DNA of 7,669 bases from a virus, in the IMG/VR virus record IMGVR_UViG_3300007143_000050, positions 1 to 7,669 of that record. One strand, 5' to 3'. This document shows, piece by piece, positions 1-7,669 of the stretch. The notes under the pieces are model-generated. The model did not search any database, was not told the origin of the DNA, and was given only the letters and a program-made list of their open reading frames with translations. Position 1 is the first letter of the stretch, and each line of letters opens with the position of its first letter. The position numbers were made by a program, and so were the translations under genes.

Positions 1-83
1 AATGCTGTCAAGCATCTGTTAAGTAACATAATATAAGTTATGCAGAAATCAGATCACTACTCGATTTGCGTACAAGCAAGCTT
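1..83. repeat. Terminal direct repeat, copy 1 (identical to 7587-7669)
   Basis: Base-by-base comparison: aatgctgtcaagcatctgttaagtaacataatataagttatgcagaaatcagatcactactcgatttgcgtacaagcaagctt occurs at both window ends. Confidence 0.97.
21..48 (-). other. dif-like XerC/XerD recombination site B (putative attP half). It is duplicated at 7607-7634 because it lies inside the terminal overlap.
   Basis: The minus strand reads TTTCTGCATAA-CTTATA-TTATGTTACTT. This has the dif architecture (11-nt arm ending CATAA, 6-nt centre, 11-nt arm starting TTATG). Compare E. coli dif GGTGCGCATAA-TGTATA-TTATGTTAAAT: the XerD arm matches at 8 of its first 8 positions, and the XerC arm core GCATAA is conserved. Confidence 0.6.
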
Positions 84-92
84 ACGCAAATC
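63..92 (-). terminator. Perfect 10-bp stem / 10-nt loop hairpin 14 nt downstream of the hicB-like stop codon. It may be a terminator or an origin-type hairpin.
   Basis: gatttgcgta (63-72) is the exact reverse complement of tacgcaaatc (83-92). No U-tract follows on either strand, so the terminator call is weak. Confidence 0.3.
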
Positions 93-106
93 TGCGTGGC
101 TATGAC

Positions 107-301
107 TTATCCACGAGGACTAATTCCATTCTCCATGCAAACTTGTAAGTAAATATTGAGTGACTTTTCTGCTTTCTGGTATAAGTCTTCAAGATTTGCT
201 GCATAACAGTCCGCACCGCTATTCAAACCTATAAATTGGCCATGAAATTGGTGAATATCTGAGTCATATGAAATCTCAAGGATATAACCATTAATATTCA
301 T
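107..301 (-). CDS. HicB-like antitoxin N-terminal domain protein (HicB_lk_antitox-type), lacking the usual C-terminal DNA-binding domain
   Basis: From the ATG at 301 the product is MNINGYILEISYDSDIHQFHGQFIGLNSGADCYAANLEDLYQKAEKSLNIYLQVCMENGISPRG. This fits the HicB-like N-domain pattern as I recall it: Y.G....yD.ed..FHG...G..d...feg....eL......s...YL..C.e.G..P. The ORF-track version (107-364) starts at a TTG with no SD. ATG starts exist at 322 and 301, and 301 is preceded by the purine-rich aagaagag. The protein stops right after the N-domain, with no RHH/HTH tail. Confidence 0.65.
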   Translation of the reverse strand: MNINGYILEISYDSDIHQFHGQFIGLNSGADCYAANLEDLYQKAEKSLNIYLQVCMENGISPRG

Positions 302-430
302 AATATTACTCTTCTTACACATTGTTGTGCGGTTCTTGCTCTGTAGGTAGTTACAACTATTCAATTTATATCAGTTCGCAAGTTTCACTTTATTAACGTC
401 AACTCTTCGAGATTGACCTTAATAAAGCGA

Positions 431-524: not shown

Positions 525-785
525 TTATTTTGCCACCAAGCTGATATGAAGTAATTCAACGCTAAAGTTCTGATTCACAATGTTAATTAAGGACTCAATC
601 GTATTAAATTGCATAGGTTCAAGGTTTGAATTCGCTAAACGACCAGAGCCATATGGTGAGTAAAATCCTAAATACCATTTAGAATATTTTTTAGGCTTAT
701 GTGGAATGGCAAATACCCTAAATTGCTCTTTAGATAGACTGTAAAAGCGCTTAATTTCTTCAAGTTTAAAGTCAGAATGTTCCAT
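525..785 (-). CDS. Hypothetical 86-aa protein immediately downstream of the Zot/pI-like gene
   Basis: ATG start with AGGAAAG 5 nt upstream. It lies 10 nt after the stop of the preceding gene and on the same strand as the phage core. I recognise no family. Confidence 0.55.
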   Translation of the reverse strand: MEHSDFKLEEIKRFYSLSKEQFRVFAIPHKPKKYSKWYLGFYSPYGSGRLANSNLEPMQFNTIESLINIVNQNFSVELLHISLVAK

Positions 786-795
786 TTAATCTTTC

Positions 796-1839
796 CTAGA
801 GATTTTGTTGCGATGTGATAACTTCGGTATTTTCTTGATTACGTTCAATTAATCTTGGATTTCTGGATGAGCTCATATAGATTCCAGGATTTTTGGCATA
901 TTCGAAGCACATGGGTTCATTGTATGAAATAACTTCACCATATCCATTTCTAGCAACACATTGATTTCCACTAACAATGACTGATGCAACCCTAATAACT
1001 TCATGATCTTGATTGCCTTTTATGGTGCTACCATTTGTTTTATTAGAAGAATTCTTAGAAGTAGATGTATTTTCATCATTATTCAAATCAAGATCTGGAG
1101 CTTTGCCAATTGATTTAATTGCTTCGGTGTCCGTAGCTTTTTTTGCAATATCAATAAAACCACTAGCTAAAAACAGTTTTATTGCAAATCCCATCATGAT
1201 AATAATTGCAATCCCTGCATAAATAAATTTTCGCTGAATTTTAAAACTCATTGATGTATGCGCTGATGCGCTAGTGTATGCCTCGTAATATTTTTTATGA
1301 TATTTAAAGATATAACTATCATGATGCTTGCCTGCATTAGCTGCTGAGTATGGGTCGTTGAAATATTTATCAAAGACATAAACTGTTGCAAACGGAGGTT
1401 TATTTTGTGGACGTTTCACATAGTACATTGCATCTAATAAATTGCGAGTAGAGTGCTCTACCCTTTTAAAATCCTGAGTTATCAGATATATATCAATATT
1501 ACGGTGACCATGAATTGTGAGCTCTTTAATCATTGGGTTCTGAGAAGGTCGGCTAGACGTAAATTCATATTCTTTTCTAAAGTGCACCTCATCATAGAAA
1601 ATCACAGAACCGTCAGGGACATCACGCCAATCATCTGGCGATTTGATGACACCATTTAAATTTAAACCATCAATATCAGCATAGACTGGTCTTATTTCCT
1701 CTTTCTTTTCAGGATCTAGTGTACCTCCATCCTCAATTTTCTTTTGGTACTTAGCATTTAACTCTAACTGCTTCATTATCAGTGAAACAGCAAACTGTGT
1801 TTTTCCTTCTCTAGGTTTTCCGCAAATGCCATATAACAT
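796..1839 (-). CDS. Zot / pI-like filamentous phage assembly NTPase (zonula occludens toxin family)
   Basis: N-terminal P-loop GICGKPREGKT, Walker-B-like SVIFYDEVH, a single mid-protein TM segment (FIYAGIAIIIMMGFAIKLFLASGFI) and a C-terminal extracytoplasmic tail. This is the typical pI/Zot architecture and position (after pVI-like). SD AAGGAA lies 7 nt upstream of the ATG. Confidence 0.85.
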   Translation of the reverse strand: MLYGICGKPREGKTQFAVSLIMKQLELNAKYQKKIEDGGTLDPEKKEEIRPVYADIDGLNLNGVIKSPDDWRDVPDGSVIFYDEVHFRKEYEFTSSRPSQNPMIKELTIHGHRNIDIYLITQDFKRVEHSTRNLLDAMYYVKRPQNKPPFATVYVFDKYFNDPYSAANAGKHHDSYIFKYHKKYYEAYTSASAHTSMSFKIQRKFIYAGIAIIIMMGFAIKLFLASGFIDIAKKATDTEAIKSIGKAPDLDLNNDENTSTSKNSSNKTNGSTIKGNQDHEVIRVASVIVSGNQCVARNGYGEVISYNEPMCFEYAKNPGIYMSSSRNPRLIERNQENTEVITSQQNL

Positions 1840-1841
1840 AG

Positions 1842-2141
1842 TTATGTTCCTTTACGGAAAGCTAAATTTTTAGCTCTTAAAGTCATTTTTATAACTAGGG
1901 CACTAAAAACAATAGATAAACCCACATCAAATCCAGCAATTCCTAGTAAACCAATGACATCACCAAGTGAGTTATAAGACTGTTGTGCATATTCAATATA
2001 TTTATGGATTAAAGTTAAACTGATCGTTGTGCTAACGATGCCTATACCAAGCCCTTTTAAGATGGTTTGTCCTGATTTAGATAAAACTACATCCGCAATT
2101 TTTGTAAGCAAGGAAGCTAATGACATAGATTCAATCCTCAC
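1842..2141 (-). CDS. pVI-like hydrophobic minor coat protein
   Basis: Small, strongly hydrophobic protein (GLGIGIVSTTISLTLI, LLGIAGFDVGLSIVFSALVI) located between the pIII-like and pI-like genes. The track start at 2141 is a GTG overlapping the pIII-like stop. An ATG at 2126 preceded by GAGGA (8-nt spacing) is the more likely start, giving 1842-2126 and 94 aa. Confidence 0.65.
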   Translation of the reverse strand: MRIESMSLASLLTKIADVVLSKSGQTILKGLGIGIVSTTISLTLIHKYIEYAQQSYNSLGDVIGLLGIAGFDVGLSIVFSALVIKMTLRAKNLAFRKGT

Positions 2142-3360
2142 TCGCTTTTCTTGAAGTGCCTGTTACGATAAAGGCAGCAACCACCCAAGCTATTAGAATC
2201 ACTGCTGGTCTTGCTTGATTTGCTAAAGCACAGAATGGTTGGTAACTCAATGTAATATGGCTATTTAAATTTGCGATATTTATAGGAATTTTATTGTCTG
2301 CTGGACAATAAGCATTACCTTGAATATATGAGACTTTCATACTATTAAGTAGATGATCTAAGTTTTCTTCTTCAACTTGCTTCTCAGGCTCTTCTACATT
2401 TTCTGGTTCAGCTTTAACCCAATCAATAAATTCACATACCACATTAAACCACTCACACGCTTCGGGTAATTCTGATGTTGATAAGCCTGTTGGATTTCCA
2501 TCAGAATCCAATACTGGTCGTGTTGTGATTTCTTTGCTTACTTGGCTATCAAAGTCTTTTTCTATTTCTGTTTTTACATCCGGATCAGCAAATATATCAT
2601 TCCAGGGAAAGTAAATTTCACCTGCATGATCATCTACGATTTTGTCTATATCAGCATCAGATAATGGTGATGGTTCACTAGATGGATCTGGGTTCGGACT
2701 AGGATTAGTTTTGGTTGGTTTGTAATAGATAGAGAATGTGCCAGTATCAGTTTCACCTGTAATTTTATGTATAGAAGAATAAGGATGTTGGAAATAACCT
2801 TGTCTTGGGAAGTTCGTGATATTTAAGTAGTCATAAGGCTCTAAAGCATAATTTCGATATTGATCGGAAGGAATAAGCGCACATGATGCTGTTTTAAATG
2901 GTGAATTAGTGACACATTTAGGATTGCCAACAGTTCCTGAGTGAAATTGGTAATCACTGTACGTTGTATTTTGATCTGGTTTTTTACCCCACTTACCATT
3001 GAAGAACTCAAAGCCTAGATAACCTAAAAAGGCGACTAATGCTGCTGAACCTACTGCTAACTGTGGATTTCTAAGCACACGAGATCTTAATGATAGCTTT
3101 GCTAAATTGTTTGTTTTTAACGTATTGAGTTTATATGATTTTTGATAAGTACGATCATTTACAGCATCGCCATATTGATCAACTTTGTGGCCACTAACTT
3201 TTAAGGTTTTAGTAGAGTTGTCGATAGCATATTTTAAGTCCCATTTTTCAGCAGCACCTGCATAAATAGAATTAGACCATATTCCAGTAAGTATTAAAGA
3301 TATAGCTAAAAGAGTTTTTAAAATATTTTTAGAGCGACCAGTATCCAAATCAGTAAGCAT
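2131..3360 (-). CDS. pIII-like adsorption / minor coat protein
   Basis: The N-terminus has a signal-peptide-like hydrophobic stretch (LLAISLILTGIWSNSIYAGAAEK). There are three spaced Cys pairs and a Pro/Ser-rich linker (PTKTNPSPNPDPSSEPSPLSD). The C-terminus carries a TM anchor plus charged tail (AVILIAWVVAAFIVTGTSRKASED). It is the largest structural ORF and sits directly after the major coat gene. SD AGGAG lies 7 nt upstream. Confidence 0.7.
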   Translation of the reverse strand: MLTDLDTGRSKNILKTLLAISLILTGIWSNSIYAGAAEKWDLKYAIDNSTKTLKVSGHKVDQYGDAVNDRTYQKSYKLNTLKTNNLAKLSLRSRVLRNPQLAVGSAALVAFLGYLGFEFFNGKWGKKPDQNTTYSDYQFHSGTVGNPKCVTNSPFKTASCALIPSDQYRNYALEPYDYLNITNFPRQGYFQHPYSSIHKITGETDTGTFSIYYKPTKTNPSPNPDPSSEPSPLSDADIDKIVDDHAGEIYFPWNDIFADPDVKTEIEKDFDSQVSKEITTRPVLDSDGNPTGLSTSELPEACEWFNVVCEFIDWVKAEPENVEEPEKQVEEENLDHLLNSMKVSYIQGNAYCPADNKIPINIANLNSHITLSYQPFCALANQARPAVILIAWVVAAFIVTGTSRKASED

Positions 3361-3431
3361 AAGTATGCTCCTAGTGTATCTATATCCATTTCGTTTCTCT
3401 CAATTAATTCATAGAGTTAAGTAGAAATGAG

Positions 3432-3492
3432 ATAAGGGAGAAATTGCTCCGTTGCTGCGAGCCCTCGCAACCATCGCAATTTACTCCCTTAT
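3432..3492 (-). terminator. Long GC-enriched stem-loop between the major coat gene and the pIII-like gene. Likely a terminator/attenuator, analogous to the post-gene-VIII terminator of Ff phages.
   Basis: ataagggag/ctcccttat (3432-3440 / 3484-3492) and aaattgc/gcaattt (3441-3447 / 3476-3482) give 16 bp with one bulged A (3483). An inner tgcga-gccc-tcgca hairpin lies at 3456-3469. The structure begins 8 nt after the coat gene stop. Only a short T-run follows on the minus strand. Confidence 0.5.
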
Positions 3493-3499
3493 AGTTTGA

Positions 3500-3778
3500 T
3501 TACATTGCAGTTTTAACCCATTTAAAGACTTTCGCAGTCACGAACAGAGATAAGACCGCTAGACCAATTGCAGATACAGTTGCAATTGCACCTGTGATGG
3601 TTTGGATTACTGTTGATACATCGACACCGCCCTCAGCTGCAAATACAGAACTTGCAGATAAAGCGATTCCTGTTACGACCATTTTTTTAATGGTCTTTGT
3701 TTGTTTGGGAATCAACTCTACTCTTAAAGATTGAATACCTTGATTCTCTTGTTTTGGATAAGTTCGTACTTGTGACAT
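3500..3778 (-). CDS. Major coat protein precursor (pVIII-like)
   Basis: The predicted mature part after the ...ALSASSVFA|AEGG cleavage-like site is AEGGVDVSTVIQTITGAIATVSAIGLAVLSLFVTAKVFKWVKTAM (45 aa). It has an acidic N-terminus, a hydrophobic core and a Lys-rich C-terminus, which is the classic inovirus coat layout. The ATG at 3778 has a good SD (GGTGGA, 6-nt spacing). An internal ATG at 3682 (MVVTGIALSASSVFA...) would give a conventional short signal peptide but has no SD. Confidence 0.8.
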   Translation of the reverse strand: MSQVRTYPKQENQGIQSLRVELIPKQTKTIKKMVVTGIALSASSVFAAEGGVDVSTVIQTITGAIATVSAIGLAVLSLFVTAKVFKWVKTAM

Positions 3779-3792
3779 AATAAGTCCACCAT

Positions 3793-3981
3793 TTAATAAC
3801 GCCTGATGGCGTTTTTGGTTTGGTTAAAGACGAACACCGTTGCAAATACAAGAAGTATTGCAGCACCGATTGAATTTGCTTCGGTGTAAGTCAACTTAGG
3901 GAGCAACGATGGTTGCTCTACCCACTGAACACATGTTTGTGTTTCATTGATAGTTTTCAAATCTGAACAAACATATGCCAT
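3793..3981 (-). CDS. Small membrane protein, candidate minor coat protein (pVII/pIX analogue)
   Basis: 62 aa with one C-proximal TM segment (IGAAILLVFATVFVF) followed by a basic tail (KNAIRRY). It lies immediately upstream of the major coat gene. SD AAGGAA is 7 nt upstream of the ATG. Confidence 0.55.
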   Translation of the reverse strand: MAYVCSDLKTINETQTCVQWVEQPSLLPKLTYTEANSIGAAILLVFATVFVFNQTKNAIRRY

Positions 3982-3992
3982 TTCTAAATTCC

Positions 3993-4211
3993 TTACATTT
4001 TTTCAAGTTGATGATTTACCTTCCAAATTAATGTCTTAAGATCATTAATTTCTTCATTTGTTGTTTCATCACTGTCTTGAATTTCTTCTAAATAACCTTC
4101 CAGTACAAATTGGATTCTGGTGTAATCATCTTTACGTAATACACCTATCCGTCTGTCATAGTTCACAGATGCATGAAGTGCATTTCGACGCCTAAAATTA
4201 AATTGGTTCAA
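3993..4211 (-). CDS. Hypothetical 72-aa soluble, acidic-tailed protein; start codon uncertain
   Basis: The open frame fills the gap between the pV-like gene and the next gene. Its first codon is TTG (complement of 4209-4211), which overlaps the pV-like gene end by 14 nt. There is no SD and no in-frame ATG except the last codon. Translational coupling is plausible. Confidence 0.4.
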   Translation of the reverse strand: MNQFNFRRRNALHASVNYDRRIGVLRKDDYTRIQFVLEGYLEEIQDSDETTNEEINDLKTLIWKVNHQLEKM

Positions 4212-4479
4212 TATCGGTCAAGATTACTTTTGAAGTTTTTCCATTTGTTACGGTTTTAAATGCAACCTCGGCATTAAATGGGAAGTCGAGATGAGCAATT
4301 TTGTTGTAATTCACTGAGGTGCCCCAGTTATATTCAATGGTGGCAAATCCCATAGCATTCCCAGTACTCGAATCTAATGGCGCCTGTACATATACAACTG
4401 TTTTGTCATATTTATTTCCATTGAAATCACCTACAGAACGTTTTGCACCAGTGATTGTAAGCGTTTGATTATCTGACAT
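4198..4479 (-). CDS. ssDNA-binding protein (gene V-like)
   Basis: 93 aa, beta-rich sequence (LTITGAKRSVGDF, KTVVYVQAP, KTSKVILTDIEP) directly downstream of the replication gene, which is the conserved position of pV/RstB-type proteins. Strong SD GAGGAA lies 5 nt upstream. The assignment is mostly positional. Confidence 0.55.
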   Translation of the reverse strand: MSDNQTLTITGAKRSVGDFNGNKYDKTVVYVQAPLDSSTGNAMGFATIEYNWGTSVNYNKIAHLDFPFNAEVAFKTVTNGKTSKVILTDIEPI

Positions 4480-4539
4480 AATATTTCCTCATTAAACGAC
4501 CTTAAACTTAGTCCCATGCTGGTCTAAATAAACATGGAG

Positions 4540-5814
4540 TTATGCAACTTTCAGGAATTGTGATACTGGTTCCTGATACCAGTCTGGACGTTGTGAACCA
4601 AAGTCCACATCCACAAAGCGAAGCAACGGAACGATATTGGACTGTGCTTCGCCATGTAAATTTTGTAAAAATGCTTTAGAAAAGCCTGCATCTTGTAATT
4701 CTTTGATATGTCTATAGAAAGTTTGATTTCCGTTATGCATTTTCTTTAATGCGCTATATCCTTGTTCTCTCAAGGAAATATAAAATAGAAGTAATTTATG
4801 AGCTTTGGAGTAACTAATATTCCCTTTAGGAGTGAGTTTGAAATGAACAGATTTAAGTTGTTCTAGTACAGAATCATCATCAGTAATTTTCATTGTTTGA
4901 CCCTCGAAAGCGGCAAAGATATCTGACGTGGTTTCTTTCCATAATTCAGCACATAAGGAACGACCTTGATTTTTTAAGTCCTGTTCATATTGAATTAGAT
5001 CAGTTAATAGAAACGGCAATTCACGTCTTTGTAGCCAACGCTTGCAGATAGTAGATTCGAAACGGATAAGACCCTTAGACCACTCAATTAGCCTTGGATC
5101 AGACATTACGTTGTAGACTCTTAAAGCGACTTCATCTCCAGCGTCAGCTTTTTTCTTGTAATCTTGCATTTGTTTTTGATATTCAATTGCTTTGAGATAT
5201 GCCTTTAAGCGTTTTAGTCTAGAATTTTTTGCACCCCAATAAGCTGTAGTTTGATATTCATCGCCCCTCGCCTTTGTTTGCCCATTACTTACTTTTTTCA
5301 GCATGTCCATAACTTGCTGGGCTTCATAATCATTTTTTAAACGAGCTGAATAAGTTGCATCTAGTTCCCATATTTGTGTTGATTCAACTTCAAGCATTGA
5401 AAATAACTTTGGATATGCCTTTTGTAAGGTCGTCAACATTTCAGCAGCCCCTTGAGCAATATCTGTTGGGCCAAATAAGTTATGTCCCTGGAGAAGTTTT
5501 GCTGGAGATGCCTTTATTTCTATATATGGATAATGATTACAGTCATGGAACACTTTAAATGCCAAAGGTGTATATGAGCTTTCAAGGGATTCAAACGGAT
5601 GATAAATTTCATCTATTTGCCAATCTTTCCAGAATCTATCTTCATGCTCTGCTAAAGCGACTGCCCTAGCCCCTAATGGAATTCCAAGTTTAAGAACATC
5701 AAATAGCATTCCTTTATGCTCATGCTCCATGGCATTTTTTGCAGTCAAATAGGCTGATGCCCCAGTTACATACTGAGGCTTAAATGGTGTCATCATTCTT
5801 AGCCTATCCCACAT
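4540..5814 (-). CDS. Rolling-circle replication initiation protein (pII / Phage_CRI family)
   Basis: The motif IEIKASPAKLLQGHNLFG matches the conserved ..NP.K.LQGHN.FG signature I associate with filamentous phage replication proteins (gene II/X, CRI). It is the largest ORF and the first in the core operon. The start could be the ATG at 5814 (no SD) or the ATG-ATG at 5796/5793 (preceded by taggctaaga). Confidence 0.8.
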   Translation of the reverse strand: MWDRLRMMTPFKPQYVTGASAYLTAKNAMEHEHKGMLFDVLKLGIPLGARAVALAEHEDRFWKDWQIDEIYHPFESLESSYTPLAFKVFHDCNHYPYIEIKASPAKLLQGHNLFGPTDIAQGAAEMLTTLQKAYPKLFSMLEVESTQIWELDATYSARLKNDYEAQQVMDMLKKVSNGQTKARGDEYQTTAYWGAKNSRLKRLKAYLKAIEYQKQMQDYKKKADAGDEVALRVYNVMSDPRLIEWSKGLIRFESTICKRWLQRRELPFLLTDLIQYEQDLKNQGRSLCAELWKETTSDIFAAFEGQTMKITDDDSVLEQLKSVHFKLTPKGNISYSKAHKLLLFYISLREQGYSALKKMHNGNQTFYRHIKELQDAGFSKAFLQNLHGEAQSNIVPLLRFVDVDFGSQRPDWYQEPVSQFLKVA

Positions 5815-5938
5815 AATTTACTTGTTTAAAAGTTACCAATAGAAGTAAAACAATTAAAACAATTTAAAAGTAACTTTACAATCTAAAAATAAAGGTAAAA
5901 TGTAAAAAAGTAACTTTGTTTATATGAGTACTATGTGA
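5815..5938. promoter_or_regulatory. Divergent control region between the replication gene and the small plus-strand gene. It carries repeated AAAAGTAACTTT boxes and a tandem 9-mer.
   Basis: AAAAGTAACTTT occurs at 5866-5877 and 5906-5917, exactly 40 bp apart. The inverted core AAAAGTTAC occurs at 5828-5836. A tandem AAAACAATT x2 lies at 5847-5864. The region is extremely AT-rich with many -10-like hexamers, and I cannot assign individual promoters confidently. Confidence 0.5.
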
Positions 5939-6133
5939 ATGGCTAAAGTCTATAAAGTCCGAGATGAAGAAGTAGAGGCAATTAAAGAAGCCTTGATGAA
6001 ATTTGTCATTGATAAAAAAGTCTTAATGAAAGAATCGGATGTGATCCATGCATTGATTAAATATCATCTTAAAAACTTAAAGTCTGAGGAAGTTGTTCGC
6101 TATCGAGAAGATGTTTTAGGTAAAGATGACTAA
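5939..6133 (+). CDS. Small (64 aa) putative transcriptional regulator, transcribed divergently from the replication gene (positional analogue of RstR/phage repressors)
   Basis: MAKVYKVRDEEVEAIKEALMKF...ESDVIHALIKYHL is compatible with a short strand-helix-helix (RHH-like) layout. The position is divergent from rep across a repeat-bearing intergenic region. The SD is weak. No family was recognised with certainty. Confidence 0.4.
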   Translation: MAKVYKVRDEEVEAIKEALMKFVIDKKVLMKESDVIHALIKYHLKNLKSEEVVRYREDVLGKDD

Positions 6134-6731: not shown

Positions 6732-6808
6732 AAGTTTTGTACTAATTTCAACCATAGGAGTTGTTGGAGAAATATGTCTTTTATGGGTGATTAATCTCAA
6801 AATGAGAC

Positions 6809-6843
6809 AAGAGTCCACCATTAGATAACGTGGACTCTTTTTT
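6809..6843 (+). terminator. Rho-independent terminator, plus-strand orientation
   Basis: aagagtccac (6809-6818) / gtggactctt (6830-6839) with an 11-nt loop. The stem runs directly into a T-tract (six consecutive T at 6838-6843). The opposite strand has no T-tract directly after the stem. Confidence 0.6.
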
Positions 6844-6945
6844 GTACAAATAAACATCAACAAAGTAATTTAAAAAAATTAACCACTTGAAAATTAAATT
6901 AATAAACAGATACTAAATATCTCAATAACTTTATAAGGAAAATAA

Positions 6946-7443
6946 GTGGAAATTCAATTAACAGATAAAGAACGTTTATTCTTGGCTAATCAGCATGAGA
7001 TTCTAAGTTTTTTAGACAAAGATAATTCAGAATATCATTCGAAACTTGCCGAGCAATTGAAACGTGGTCATAAATGGTTGTATGAACAGAGTTTTGATTA
7101 TTTCTCTGAAAATCTTTCAGAAGAAAATGCACAATTGGTTTTAGATATTCTTCAAATCTATGAAATGCTTCAAGATGCTTATGATTCTGTTGTAGATAAG
7201 ACAAAAGTCTCCGCAGATGAAATTAAATTCCCTGGATTTGATGGAAATAATGAACCTGAATTCATGGGTTTTGTTGACGCCTTGAAGAAAGATGATCGCT
7301 ATGTTGATGTTATTGAAAATGGATATAGAAACTCTCATTCACAAAAGATTCATAGATATTCAATTATGATCACGAAATGGGAAGAGTTTGGTAAACCTTA
7401 TAGCCTTACAAATGATCAAGTGCTTGAAATTTTGGGTAAATAA
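6946..7443 (+). CDS. yfbU: YfbU / UPF0304 family protein
   Basis: 165 aa, the same length class as E. coli YfbU, with matches to it from memory along the whole length (ERLFLANQ..IL..LD...EY vs QRLILSNQ..MM..LD..NAERY; RG; F.GFD; G.V....RY; Y..M...W....Y.L). GTG start at 6946 with AAGGA 6 nt upstream. The upstream region is AT-rich and contains a TTGAAA hexamer (6887-6892). Confidence 0.7.
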   Translation: MEIQLTDKERLFLANQHEILSFLDKDNSEYHSKLAEQLKRGHKWLYEQSFDYFSENLSEENAQLVLDILQIYEMLQDAYDSVVDKTKVSADEIKFPGFDGNNEPEFMGFVDALKKDDRYVDVIENGYRNSHSQKIHRYSIMITKWEEFGKPYSLTNDQVLEILGK

Positions 7444-7464
7444 TCATTTACACTAGTCATTCTG

Positions 7465-7493
7465 AAGTCGCATAACTTCATTTTATGTTAAAT
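7465..7493 (+). other. dif-like XerC/XerD site A, inverted relative to site B
   Basis: AAGTCGCATAA-CTTCATT-TTATGTTAAAT. The right arm is identical to the 11-nt XerD arm of E. coli dif (TTATGTTAAAT). The left arm shares CGCATAA with the XerC arm. The centre is 7 nt as written, or 6 nt if the right arm is shifted by one. Confidence 0.6.
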
Positions 7494-7502
7494 AACATAT
7501 CT

Positions 7503-7596
7503 ACGACAGCACCCTAATTTAGTTGCGTTACCGCAACTTCATTTCAATCGTTGGTGCTGTGCCTGACAGCTTATGTAACAAGTGACAATGCTGTCA
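7503..7596. other. Cluster of nested hairpins in the large non-coding region. Candidate origin or packaging-signal structures.
   Basis: acagcacc (7506-7513) / ggtgctgt (7553-7560) enclose agttgcg-ttac-cgcaact (7521-7538). tgacagc (7564-7570) pairs with gctgtca (7590-7596). The hexamer GACAGC or its complement recurs four times (7505, 7556 imperfect, 7565, 7590). Confidence 0.45.
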
Positions 7597-7669
7597 AGCA
7601 TCTGTTAAGTAACATAATATAAGTTATGCAGAAATCAGATCACTACTCGATTTGCGTACAAGCAAGCTT
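7587..7669. repeat. Terminal direct repeat, copy 2 (identical to 1-83). The repeat is cut by the window end.
   Basis: Same 83-nt string as 1-83. The hairpin at 63-92 is only half contained in this copy, so the repeat looks like an overlap or permutation boundary rather than a biological repeat end. Confidence 0.97.

Follow-up and report, generated by a model that had tools for sequence, protein, structure and literature searches.

A close described counterpart of the locus analysed here is the attP(+) site of the Vibrio cholerae phage CTXphi. There, the top strand is exchanged by XerC on the XerC side, which must match the chromosomal dif site (PMC9226527, PMC4246890). The attP of TLCphi is double-stranded and its XerD arm is degenerate; the phage supplies its own activator, XafT, and XerC completes the reaction (PMC9226527, PMC6744903). 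VGJphi carries a single double-stranded site that is exchanged at the XerC side (PMC4246890). In Acinetobacter, ordinary dif modules have standard 6-nt border sites and were not Xer-excisable in tests (PMC11705084), and the filamentous phages Af and M02 of A. baumannii 'probably' use XerCD (PMC11209303). The present study concerns a window of 7669 nt (the whole stretch of DNA analysed, IMG/VR record IMGVR_UViG_3300007143_000050), which represents a filamentous phage (inovirus) genome with two inverted dif-like sequences, site A and site B, at positions 7465–7634. This region is probably the attachment site of an IMEX (integrative mobile element exploiting Xer), an element that makes use of the XerC and XerD recombinases of its host. 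Recent work on plasmid dif (pdif) sites and chromosomal dif modules of Acinetobacter, PMC11705084 among it, does not mention phages, and no description of such an arrangement in this genus was found in the literature searched. The initial annotation of the locus knew of no such description for an AT-rich, non-Vibrio-like phage with this cargo; a claim that sites of this kind are not known outside Vibrio would be too strong, since YpfPhi and CUS-1Phi are listed as CTX-type (PMC4246890) and Af and M02 are suspected of XerCD use (PMC11209303).

A comparison with CTXphi, including RS1, YpfPhi and CUS-1Phi, reveals a shared architecture and a different exchange. Both are inoviruses without an integrase, in which inverted dif-like sites about 90–115 nt apart fold in the (+) single strand to a forked hairpin that mimics dif (in silico in the present case) and contains a mispaired spot in the central region. 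Both also form tandem arrays at dif with gene-poor, satellite-like units. By contrast, the crossover of the elements with sites A and B lies at the XerD side of the bottom-strand site, and their XerC side mismatches dif. Their loop is located at the 3' end of the prophage, with the phage (+) strand joined to the dif bottom strand, and they preserve an intact 6-nt dif that is not rebuilt from phage sequence.

The crossover position is compatible with a first XerD exchange, as in the XerD-first systems TLCphi and the gonococcal genetic island, and here too the elements are small satellite-like units at dif. Unlike in TLCphi, the XerD arm of site A is consensus and no XafT/DUF3653 protein was found; moreover, the A/B elements have a second inverted site, a conserved fold and a single central-region outcome. 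With the VGJphi-type attP the locus shares a 29-bp dif-like site with a 7-nt spacer, carried by an inovirus that integrates at dif, but the A/B elements have two sites and an XerD-side junction. The pdif (xrs) sites and dif modules of Acinetobacter plasmids have the same recombinase arms, and neighbouring sites are inversely oriented. Site A is itself a plasmid pdif, and the pdif sites that the elements use as targets have central regions unrelated to one another. In contrast to dif modules, site B is non-consensus, the spacer of A measures 7–8 nt, a structured loop lies between the sites and whole phages are attached. M02 and Af infect the same host genus and encode a replication protein of the G2P type (42% identity); they too have a pair of inverted dif-like sites and occur at the same dif in tandem arrays, beside A/B-type elements. 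In M02-type prophages, however, it is the phage central region that adjoins the loop at the 5' end, while the far end has the central region of the host, a CTX-like XerC-side pattern. Their chromosomal orientation is opposite, the (+) strand of M02 corresponding to the dif top strand and that of the A/B-type elements to the bottom strand. Judged by their dif-like attachment sites, the lack of a recombinase of their own and the integration of relatives at dif, the A/B elements appear to fit the IMEX definition. They depart from the CTX type in its catalytic and junction features, lack the XafT and the degenerate XerD arm of the TLC type, and are not of the single-site VGJ type.

Sites A and B and their conserved fold

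Site A (7465–7493, plus strand) reads AAGTCGCATAA CTTCATT TTATGTTAAAT and consists of a near-consensus XerC arm (7465–7475), a 7-nt central region (7476–7482) and a consensus XerD arm (7483–7493). It holds the crossover and forms the bottom strand of the hairpin in the packaged strand. Its partner, site B (7607–7634, minus strand), reads TTTCTGCATAA CTTATA TTATGTTACTT, with the XerC arm at 7634–7624, a 6-nt central region at 7623–7618 and, at 7617–7607, an XerD arm that shows two outer departures from the consensus. Coordinates and sequences agree with the initial annotation, as do the inverted orientation and the 113 nt between the sites. Their dif-like nature is borne out by a search for GCATAA-N6/7-TTATGTTA, which matches three times in the window against 0.01 expected by chance; no other dif-like site in the window scores close to A and B. 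Positions 1–83 repeat 7587–7669, so that the genome is a 7585-bp circle with an 83-nt terminal overlap (34.5% G+C), and 21–48 (minus strand) is the same DNA as site B, a second printing of it and not a third site.

When 7440–7669 is folded as single-stranded DNA, the minimum-energy structure contains the A:B stem on either strand, as had been predicted for the locus. The energies are -37.9 kcal/mol for the plus strand (z = -6.0) and -41.1 kcal/mol for the minus strand (z = -6.3), and none of 200 shuffles was as good. Pair probabilities within the stem are 0.89–0.99, and barring site B from pairing costs 11 kcal/mol. The stem is nearly unbroken: a block of 9 bp (GCATAACTT) is followed by a single bulged base, 2 bp, a single mismatch and a block of 8 bp (TTATGTTA), and the whole is prolonged at both ends. 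The central region is mispaired, but the bubble is smaller than the fully unpaired one first proposed, because AT at 7619–7620 pairs with 7480–7481 and leaves a bulge at 7479 and a mismatch of 7618 with 7482, adjoining the XerD arm.

The 113-nt loop of the forked hairpin (7494–7606, minus strand) is itself structured. A stem extension pairs 7603–7607 with 7493–7497, a first hairpin joins 7590–7599 to 7561–7570, and a second joins 7553–7560 to 7506–7513 and encloses an inner stem of 7532–7538 with 7521–7527. These hairpins are located in the main intergenic region of the phage, and a role of the loop as a minus-strand origin or packaging signal is possible. In the outer flank of B (7635–7669, minus strand), TCTGA at 7635–7639 pairs with 7461–7465 and lengthens the stem. 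Outside site B lies a further hairpin, at 63–92 in the duplicated copy, formed by GATTTGCGTA...TACGCAAATC and followed by TGCGTGGCTATGA (window 49–108). It is preserved, with a compensatory change from T-A to C-G, in a phage of Acinetobacter populi, in A. baumannii mini-elements and on plasmid pGX3-1, and is a candidate origin or packaging signal. The identity across the flank (20–106) is 88.6% in the mini-elements and 86.5% on pGX3-1.

Relatives of the locus were gathered through genome, plasmid, IMG/VR and protein-context searches. More than 20 inoviruses of Acinetobacter were found to carry the B-loop-A module; their replication proteins are of two unrelated kinds, and no gene is common to all elements. 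In the A. populi phage both sites are nearly unchanged, and the loop has diverged with compensating changes. Two A. johnsonii 'plasmids' of 6.4 and 6.7 kb proved to be inovirus replicative forms that have the same module together with an unrelated, RstA-type replication protein, and a pattern scan of IMG/VR added 17 further inovirus contigs. The 28-mer of site B recurs unchanged in the mini-elements of A. baumannii as well as in several inoviruses from IMG/VR. The arrangement is constant: in 21 of 21 elements the coding strand carries the 6-nt site B, placed 5' of the loop and read from XerC to XerD, and in all 21 site A, with a spacer of 7 or 8 nt, lies on the other strand.

The complementarity of A and B, which the initial annotation had made central to its proposal, is conserved and covarying in these phages. 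The central regions of B and A read, by lineage, CTTATA/CTTCATT, CGTATA/CGTAATT, CGAATA/CGAAATT, CGAATA/CGAATCTA, CTTAGA/CTTAAAA and TATTTG/TATCCTA. Their first three to five bases, on the XerC side, covary between lineages, and this covariation extends over at least five of them. Twenty sequences were aligned, and their consensus fold comprises 46 pairs. Compensatory change is seen at 25 of these (11.2 in shuffles), and 95.2% of cells are paired against 85.6% in shuffled alignments; neither value was reached in any of 500 shuffles. Slid registers pair at most 44%. Both loop hairpins are preserved by compensatory changes despite the diverged loop sequence. A chance or inert inverted repeat was also considered and is ruled out by the shuffles and the conservation.

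Integrated relatives and the position of the crossover

The dif site of Acinetobacter reads xxTTCG(T/C)ATAA TGTATA TTATGTTAAAT (ADP1, PMC2731167). The corresponding region of A. baumannii was reached through the gene contexts of a distant G2P homologue. Here, a 1.7-kb mini-element with sites identical to A and B of the window adjoins tandem M02-like prophages at dif (L007 15811–19240; L008 11725–13453; L033 2457–4185). It contains open reading frames (ORFs) of 144 aa, 82 aa, 111 aa (HTH_3/CI-like) and 85 aa, with no replication or structural genes, and because it shares the window flank 20–106 it may be a satellite mobilised by such phages. Module-bearing mini-elements in general are gene-poor and measure 1.3–1.7 kb overall.

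All three loci display the layout dif(TGTATA)-loop-B-1.55 kb-A-native dif flank, with a single copy in L008 and L033. In L007 the unit is tandem, in the order AGTTCGCATAA TGTATA TTATGTTAAAT - loop - B - ORFs - A - loop - B - ORFs - A - chromosome. The sequence past the last A is the native right dif flank, since it agrees with a strain in which this place holds a plain dif (L006) and also with the flank contained in the M02 record. A complete RstA-type phage (L035) has the same two ends as the mini-elements, and an identical site-A 29-mer is found on the native right flank of dif in L007, L033 and L035, as well as on Acinetobacter plasmids. In mixed arrays (L014 and L022), the site beside each loop-B shares its XerC arm and central region with the adjacent element and not with the owner of B. 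Insertion at the host dif, as anticipated by the initial annotation, is thus seen for elements with sites identical to A and B, which sit exactly at the A. baumannii dif in tandem arrays. None of the findings that the initial annotation had listed as refuting its proposal was encountered. Integration at dif with dif-like flanking sites, an IMEX feature, holds for the identical-site elements (L007, L008, L033 and L035) and for many homologues. As a separate observation, one B-loop unit (L021 2930–3000, minus strand) ends in ATTTAAC joined straight to TTATGTTCACC in place of a full site, a truncated or aberrant junction.

Plasmids carry the same sequences, and parts of the module occur on 26 or more plasmids of Acinetobacter. 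On those of A. baumannii and A. towneri, site A and its flank are 98–100% identical, and site A alone constitutes a pdif site beside DUF4145 genes on A. baumannii plasmids. Plasmid pGX3-1 has the order pdif(TATTGA)-loop-B-flank-terminator-DUF4145-A, in which flank and terminator match the window. On pIC001A, a 94-kb plasmid of A. johnsonii (L057, NZ_CP022299.1 50692–68839), a whole RstA-type inovirus prophage, broken by three copies of an IS3-family element, lies beside pdif(GCTCTA)-loop-B. Plasmid pFAHZZU3567hy-3 has pdif(TATAGA)-loop-B-1.27 kb-A. The targets with central regions TATTGA, GCTCTA and TATAGA show the same junction pattern as dif. On some 14 A. baumannii plasmids (H66–H79, e.g. 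NZ_CP033769.1 93797–93857) the match, at 91–92% identity, is confined to the XerD arm and the 60 nt with which the loop begins; by their sequence, these pieces look like decayed remnants of A/B-type insertions at pdif.

In all junctions, the XerC arm and central region of the target stay to the left of loop-B, site A retains its own XerC arm and 7–8 nt central region at the far end, and no integrated copy has a split site B. The crossover therefore lies between the central region and the XerD-arm end of A, which in the window corresponds to 7482/7483 (minus strand), a point deduced from relatives with identical or homologous sites and from the lack of alternative products among those sought. 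The border of XerD arm and central region is also the position at which XerD cleaves the bottom strand of dif. Within IMG/VR, B-loop-dif was found in 18 contigs, and the host arm with a 6-nt central region followed by loop and B in 13. The combinations of the B arm with the dif central region, of the host arm with a 7-nt central region, loop and B, and of the A arm with the dif central region were each found in 0 contigs, the denominator of these zero counts being uncertain, as prophage borders in IMG/VR are predictions. A metagenome scan for the B-arm hybrid returned seven matches, none with the A/B flank: six stand beside unrelated sequence and one (L056) beside an M02/CTX-like prophage.

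The products of each single-strand exchange, on either strand, were written out. Only an exchange of the A strand at the XerD position, in the packaged-strand hairpin, fits the junctions; the same XerD-position exchange on double-stranded A gives the same product. A CTX-like XerC exchange would split B or place the central region of A beside the loop, and a full two-strand reaction between 6-nt and 7-nt sites would give both central-region outcomes, of which one is seen. In addition, the XerC-side central bases are CTT, CGT, CGA or TAT depending on the lineage, none of which matches TGT of dif. The 'CTXphi-style' exchange of the initial annotation does not survive these data, as the junctions all map to the XerD side of A, the window has CTT where dif has TGT, and products of the CTX type were searched for and not found. 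A strict XerD-side homology of B with its target was considered separately; it is true for dif (TATA), fails for the plasmid sites TATTGA and GCTCTA, and is not relied on.

Proposed mechanism and competing explanations

We assign a probability of roughly 0.6 to the reading that 7465–7634 is the attachment site of an IMEX that exploits host XerC/XerD as a mirror image of CTXphi, with a folded strand exchanged at the XerD position. Hijacking of the Xer system is supported by the sequence data as a whole, and a folded single-stranded attP is likely. Because the core genes all lie on the minus strand of the window, and the packaged (+) strand of Inoviridae is the coding strand, the minus strand is the packaged (+) strand. 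In this strand, B as the top strand would anneal with A as the bottom strand into a stem that mimics dif, capped by the loop with its two hairpins. The host recombinases would bind the stem, and a single strand exchange would occur on the A strand at the border of XerD arm and central region, the XerD cut position, the partner being the bottom strand of dif in the chromosome or of a pdif on a plasmid. XerD would presumably be the catalyst, and subsequent replication would resolve the intermediate and fix the insertion. The product would have an untouched 6-nt dif, composed of host XerC arm and host central region, beside loop-B at one end; at the other end, the native right dif flank would adjoin site A, which retains its 7-nt spacer.

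Several properties of the integrated elements would follow from this scheme. The perfect dif that is kept would explain serial insertions and arrays, and the distal spacer of 7–8 nt may protect the insert from being excised by the machinery for dimer resolution. On its XerC side the stem could change freely provided that pairing is maintained, and the covariation there would be explained in this way.

A number of points weigh against the scheme. No integrated copy of the window phage itself was found, although no search was aimed at one; integration would apply to it by the identity of its sites with those of integrated elements. The junctions are the same for a folded single strand and for double-stranded A exchanged at the XerD side. 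Both strands fold equally well, so that folding gives no strand choice, and a strand-specific function of the loop, as an origin or packaging signal, could impose the constant orientation. The homology of B with the XerD side of the target (TATA) holds for dif and not for the plasmid targets, and the uncertain denominator of the IMG/VR counts has been noted above. Finally, XerD normally requires FtsK or a factor such as XafT; no XafT/DUF3653 activator is encoded in the window, and Pfam gave no match to one among the ORFs of the window or of the mini-elements. For the plausibility of XerD catalysis it is relevant that some plasmid sites are cleaved by A. baumannii XerD in the absence of FtsK, with the central region apparently deciding which (PMC11705084).

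The strongest alternative is that double-stranded A alone is the attP, recombining XerD-first with dif, either in the manner of TLCphi and the gonococcal genetic island or by an XerD exchange followed by replication, while B and the loop serve, for example, as a minus-strand origin or a stem-held packaging signal. Site A has the arms expected of such a site (consensus for XerD, near-consensus for XerC), it is the site that is cut, it is found alone as a pdif beside DUF4145 genes on A. baumannii plasmids, and the junctions are equally compatible; the location of the loop hairpins in the main intergenic region suits the functions proposed for them. This explanation leaves the XerC-side covariation of A and B in at least five lineages unaccounted for, however, and also the retention of B and the loop in mini-elements that are clearly mobile and lack a replication protein. 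A two-strand reaction of a 7/8-nt with a 6-nt site predicts both centres, against the 13 and 0 observed, and, unlike in TLCphi, the XerD arm is perfect and no XafT-like factor is present. We regard a lone double-stranded A as possible, at clearly lower odds than the folded strand.

Much less probable is that A and B are ordinary borders of a pdif (dif) module taken up from Acinetobacter plasmids, with no attachment role for the phage. The near identity of site A and its flank on plasmids, the cargo slot (YfbU/DUF4145) and terminator common to the phage and pGX3-1, and the inverse orientation, as in module borders, would agree with such an origin. Yet the window has no third site to delimit the cargo, and the 'module' between A and B would be a structured loop of 113 nt. 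The same module is also found at the chromosomal dif in tandem with phages, and the plasmid copies resemble insertions of elements, a whole inovirus prophage being present on pIC001A.

Least tenable is the reading of the initial annotation as a CTXphi-type attP(+), with an XerC-side exchange of the top hairpin strand by XerC and a junction resolved through replication: two inverted dif-like sites about 100 nt apart in a forked hairpin, the lack of an integrase and the XerC-side-compatible pattern of M02-type inoviruses of the same host speak for it, but for relatives with identical sites it is already contradicted by a top-strand site B that is whole in all integrated copies, a loop-adjacent site that retains the host central region, predicted hybrids (three patterns) that number 0 in IMG/VR with 0 of 7 metagenome matches bearing the A/B flank, and XerC-side bases (CTT/CGT/CGA/TAT) that vary by lineage and mismatch TGT of dif.

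The phage genome, its neighbours and the wider setting

The window has the hallmarks of Inoviridae, namely matches to PF05144/PF05155, PF05707 and PF05356, all on the minus strand, in a circle of 5–10 kb (7585 bp). The core block (796–5814, minus strand) comprises genes for a G2P-type replication protein (4540–5814), the major coat protein (3500–3778), a TspB-like adsorption protein (2131–3360), a DUF2523 protein (1842–2141) and a Zot-like assembly ATPase (796–1839). No integrase or transposase domain was matched in any ORF scanned with Pfam or PHROGs, in line with the initial annotation, and no integrase turned up in the mini-elements either. The closest genome is a 7462-bp A. populi contig in free form, with a G2P protein that is 85% identical, the sole return of a genome-contig scan with the replication protein; whole-genome and attP-region searches of deposited phage genomes gave no DNA-level relative.

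Adjoining site A is a cargo gene for a YfbU-family protein (6946–7443, plus strand), in the place where pGX3-1 carries a DUF4145 gene. The slot (window 6790–7465; L002 4001–4791) is limited by a common terminator-like hairpin (window 6811–6846, 89% identical) and by site A. No third dif-like site bounding the far side of the YfbU cargo was found in the window, and therefore the swap of YfbU and DUF4145 is not explained by Xer recombination. On the other side of the locus, an ORF at 107–364 (minus strand) matches the HicB-like antitoxin family phrog_9151 (E 2e-6) and an upstream 86-aa ORF (525–785, minus strand) matches phrog_22833; the two may form a phage-borne toxin-antitoxin pair beside the attachment site.

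The M02-like prophages that share dif with the A/B elements display features of their own. They have an inverted dif-like pair with long or odd central regions, and their arrays at the A. baumannii dif (L006 9072–14128; L007 1–15500; L009) include truncated units with only a replication protein and small ORFs, similar to RS1 beside CTXphi. The 'complete genome' of Acinetobacter phage M02 (L032, OQ693633.1) contains at 5927–6030 a perfect host dif (ACTTCGTATAA TGTATA TTATGTTAAAT) followed by native chromosomal flank, and the record therefore appears to have been cut from a prophage and not from the circular form. Further afield, a G2P-type prophage in a low-GC bacterium (L056 12651–12677; BNJT01001600.1, a 478-kb contig with 33% G+C) ends in TTCTGCATAA TGTATA TTATGTTAAAT, a junction of the CTX/M02 (XerC-side) kind with flanks unrelated to the A/B flank.

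A broader and rather doubtful extension of the folded-strand scheme is that phages and satellites with a hairpin attP insert by an FtsK-independent XerD single-strand exchange that is indifferent to the central region of the target, and would enter pdif as readily as dif. Each insertion would create a C/D - D/C - C/D run, and such elements would thus be one source of the inverse pdif arrays, or 'dif modules', on Acinetobacter resistance plasmids.

If the preferred reading is true, the locus would represent a fourth route of XerCD hijacking, which combines a CTXphi-like folded single-stranded site with an exchange at the XerD position and apparently dispenses with an element-encoded activator. 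It would then offer a natural system for the study of how XerD is switched on without FtsK. For annotation, the junctions provide a rule by which the prophage borders are dif-loop-B at one end and a site with a 7–8 nt spacer on the native dif flank at the other, and the locus gives a lead on the turnover of cargo beside pdif sites. One site ties together filamentous phages, small satellites, the chromosomal terminus and the resistance plasmids of Acinetobacter, a priority pathogen.

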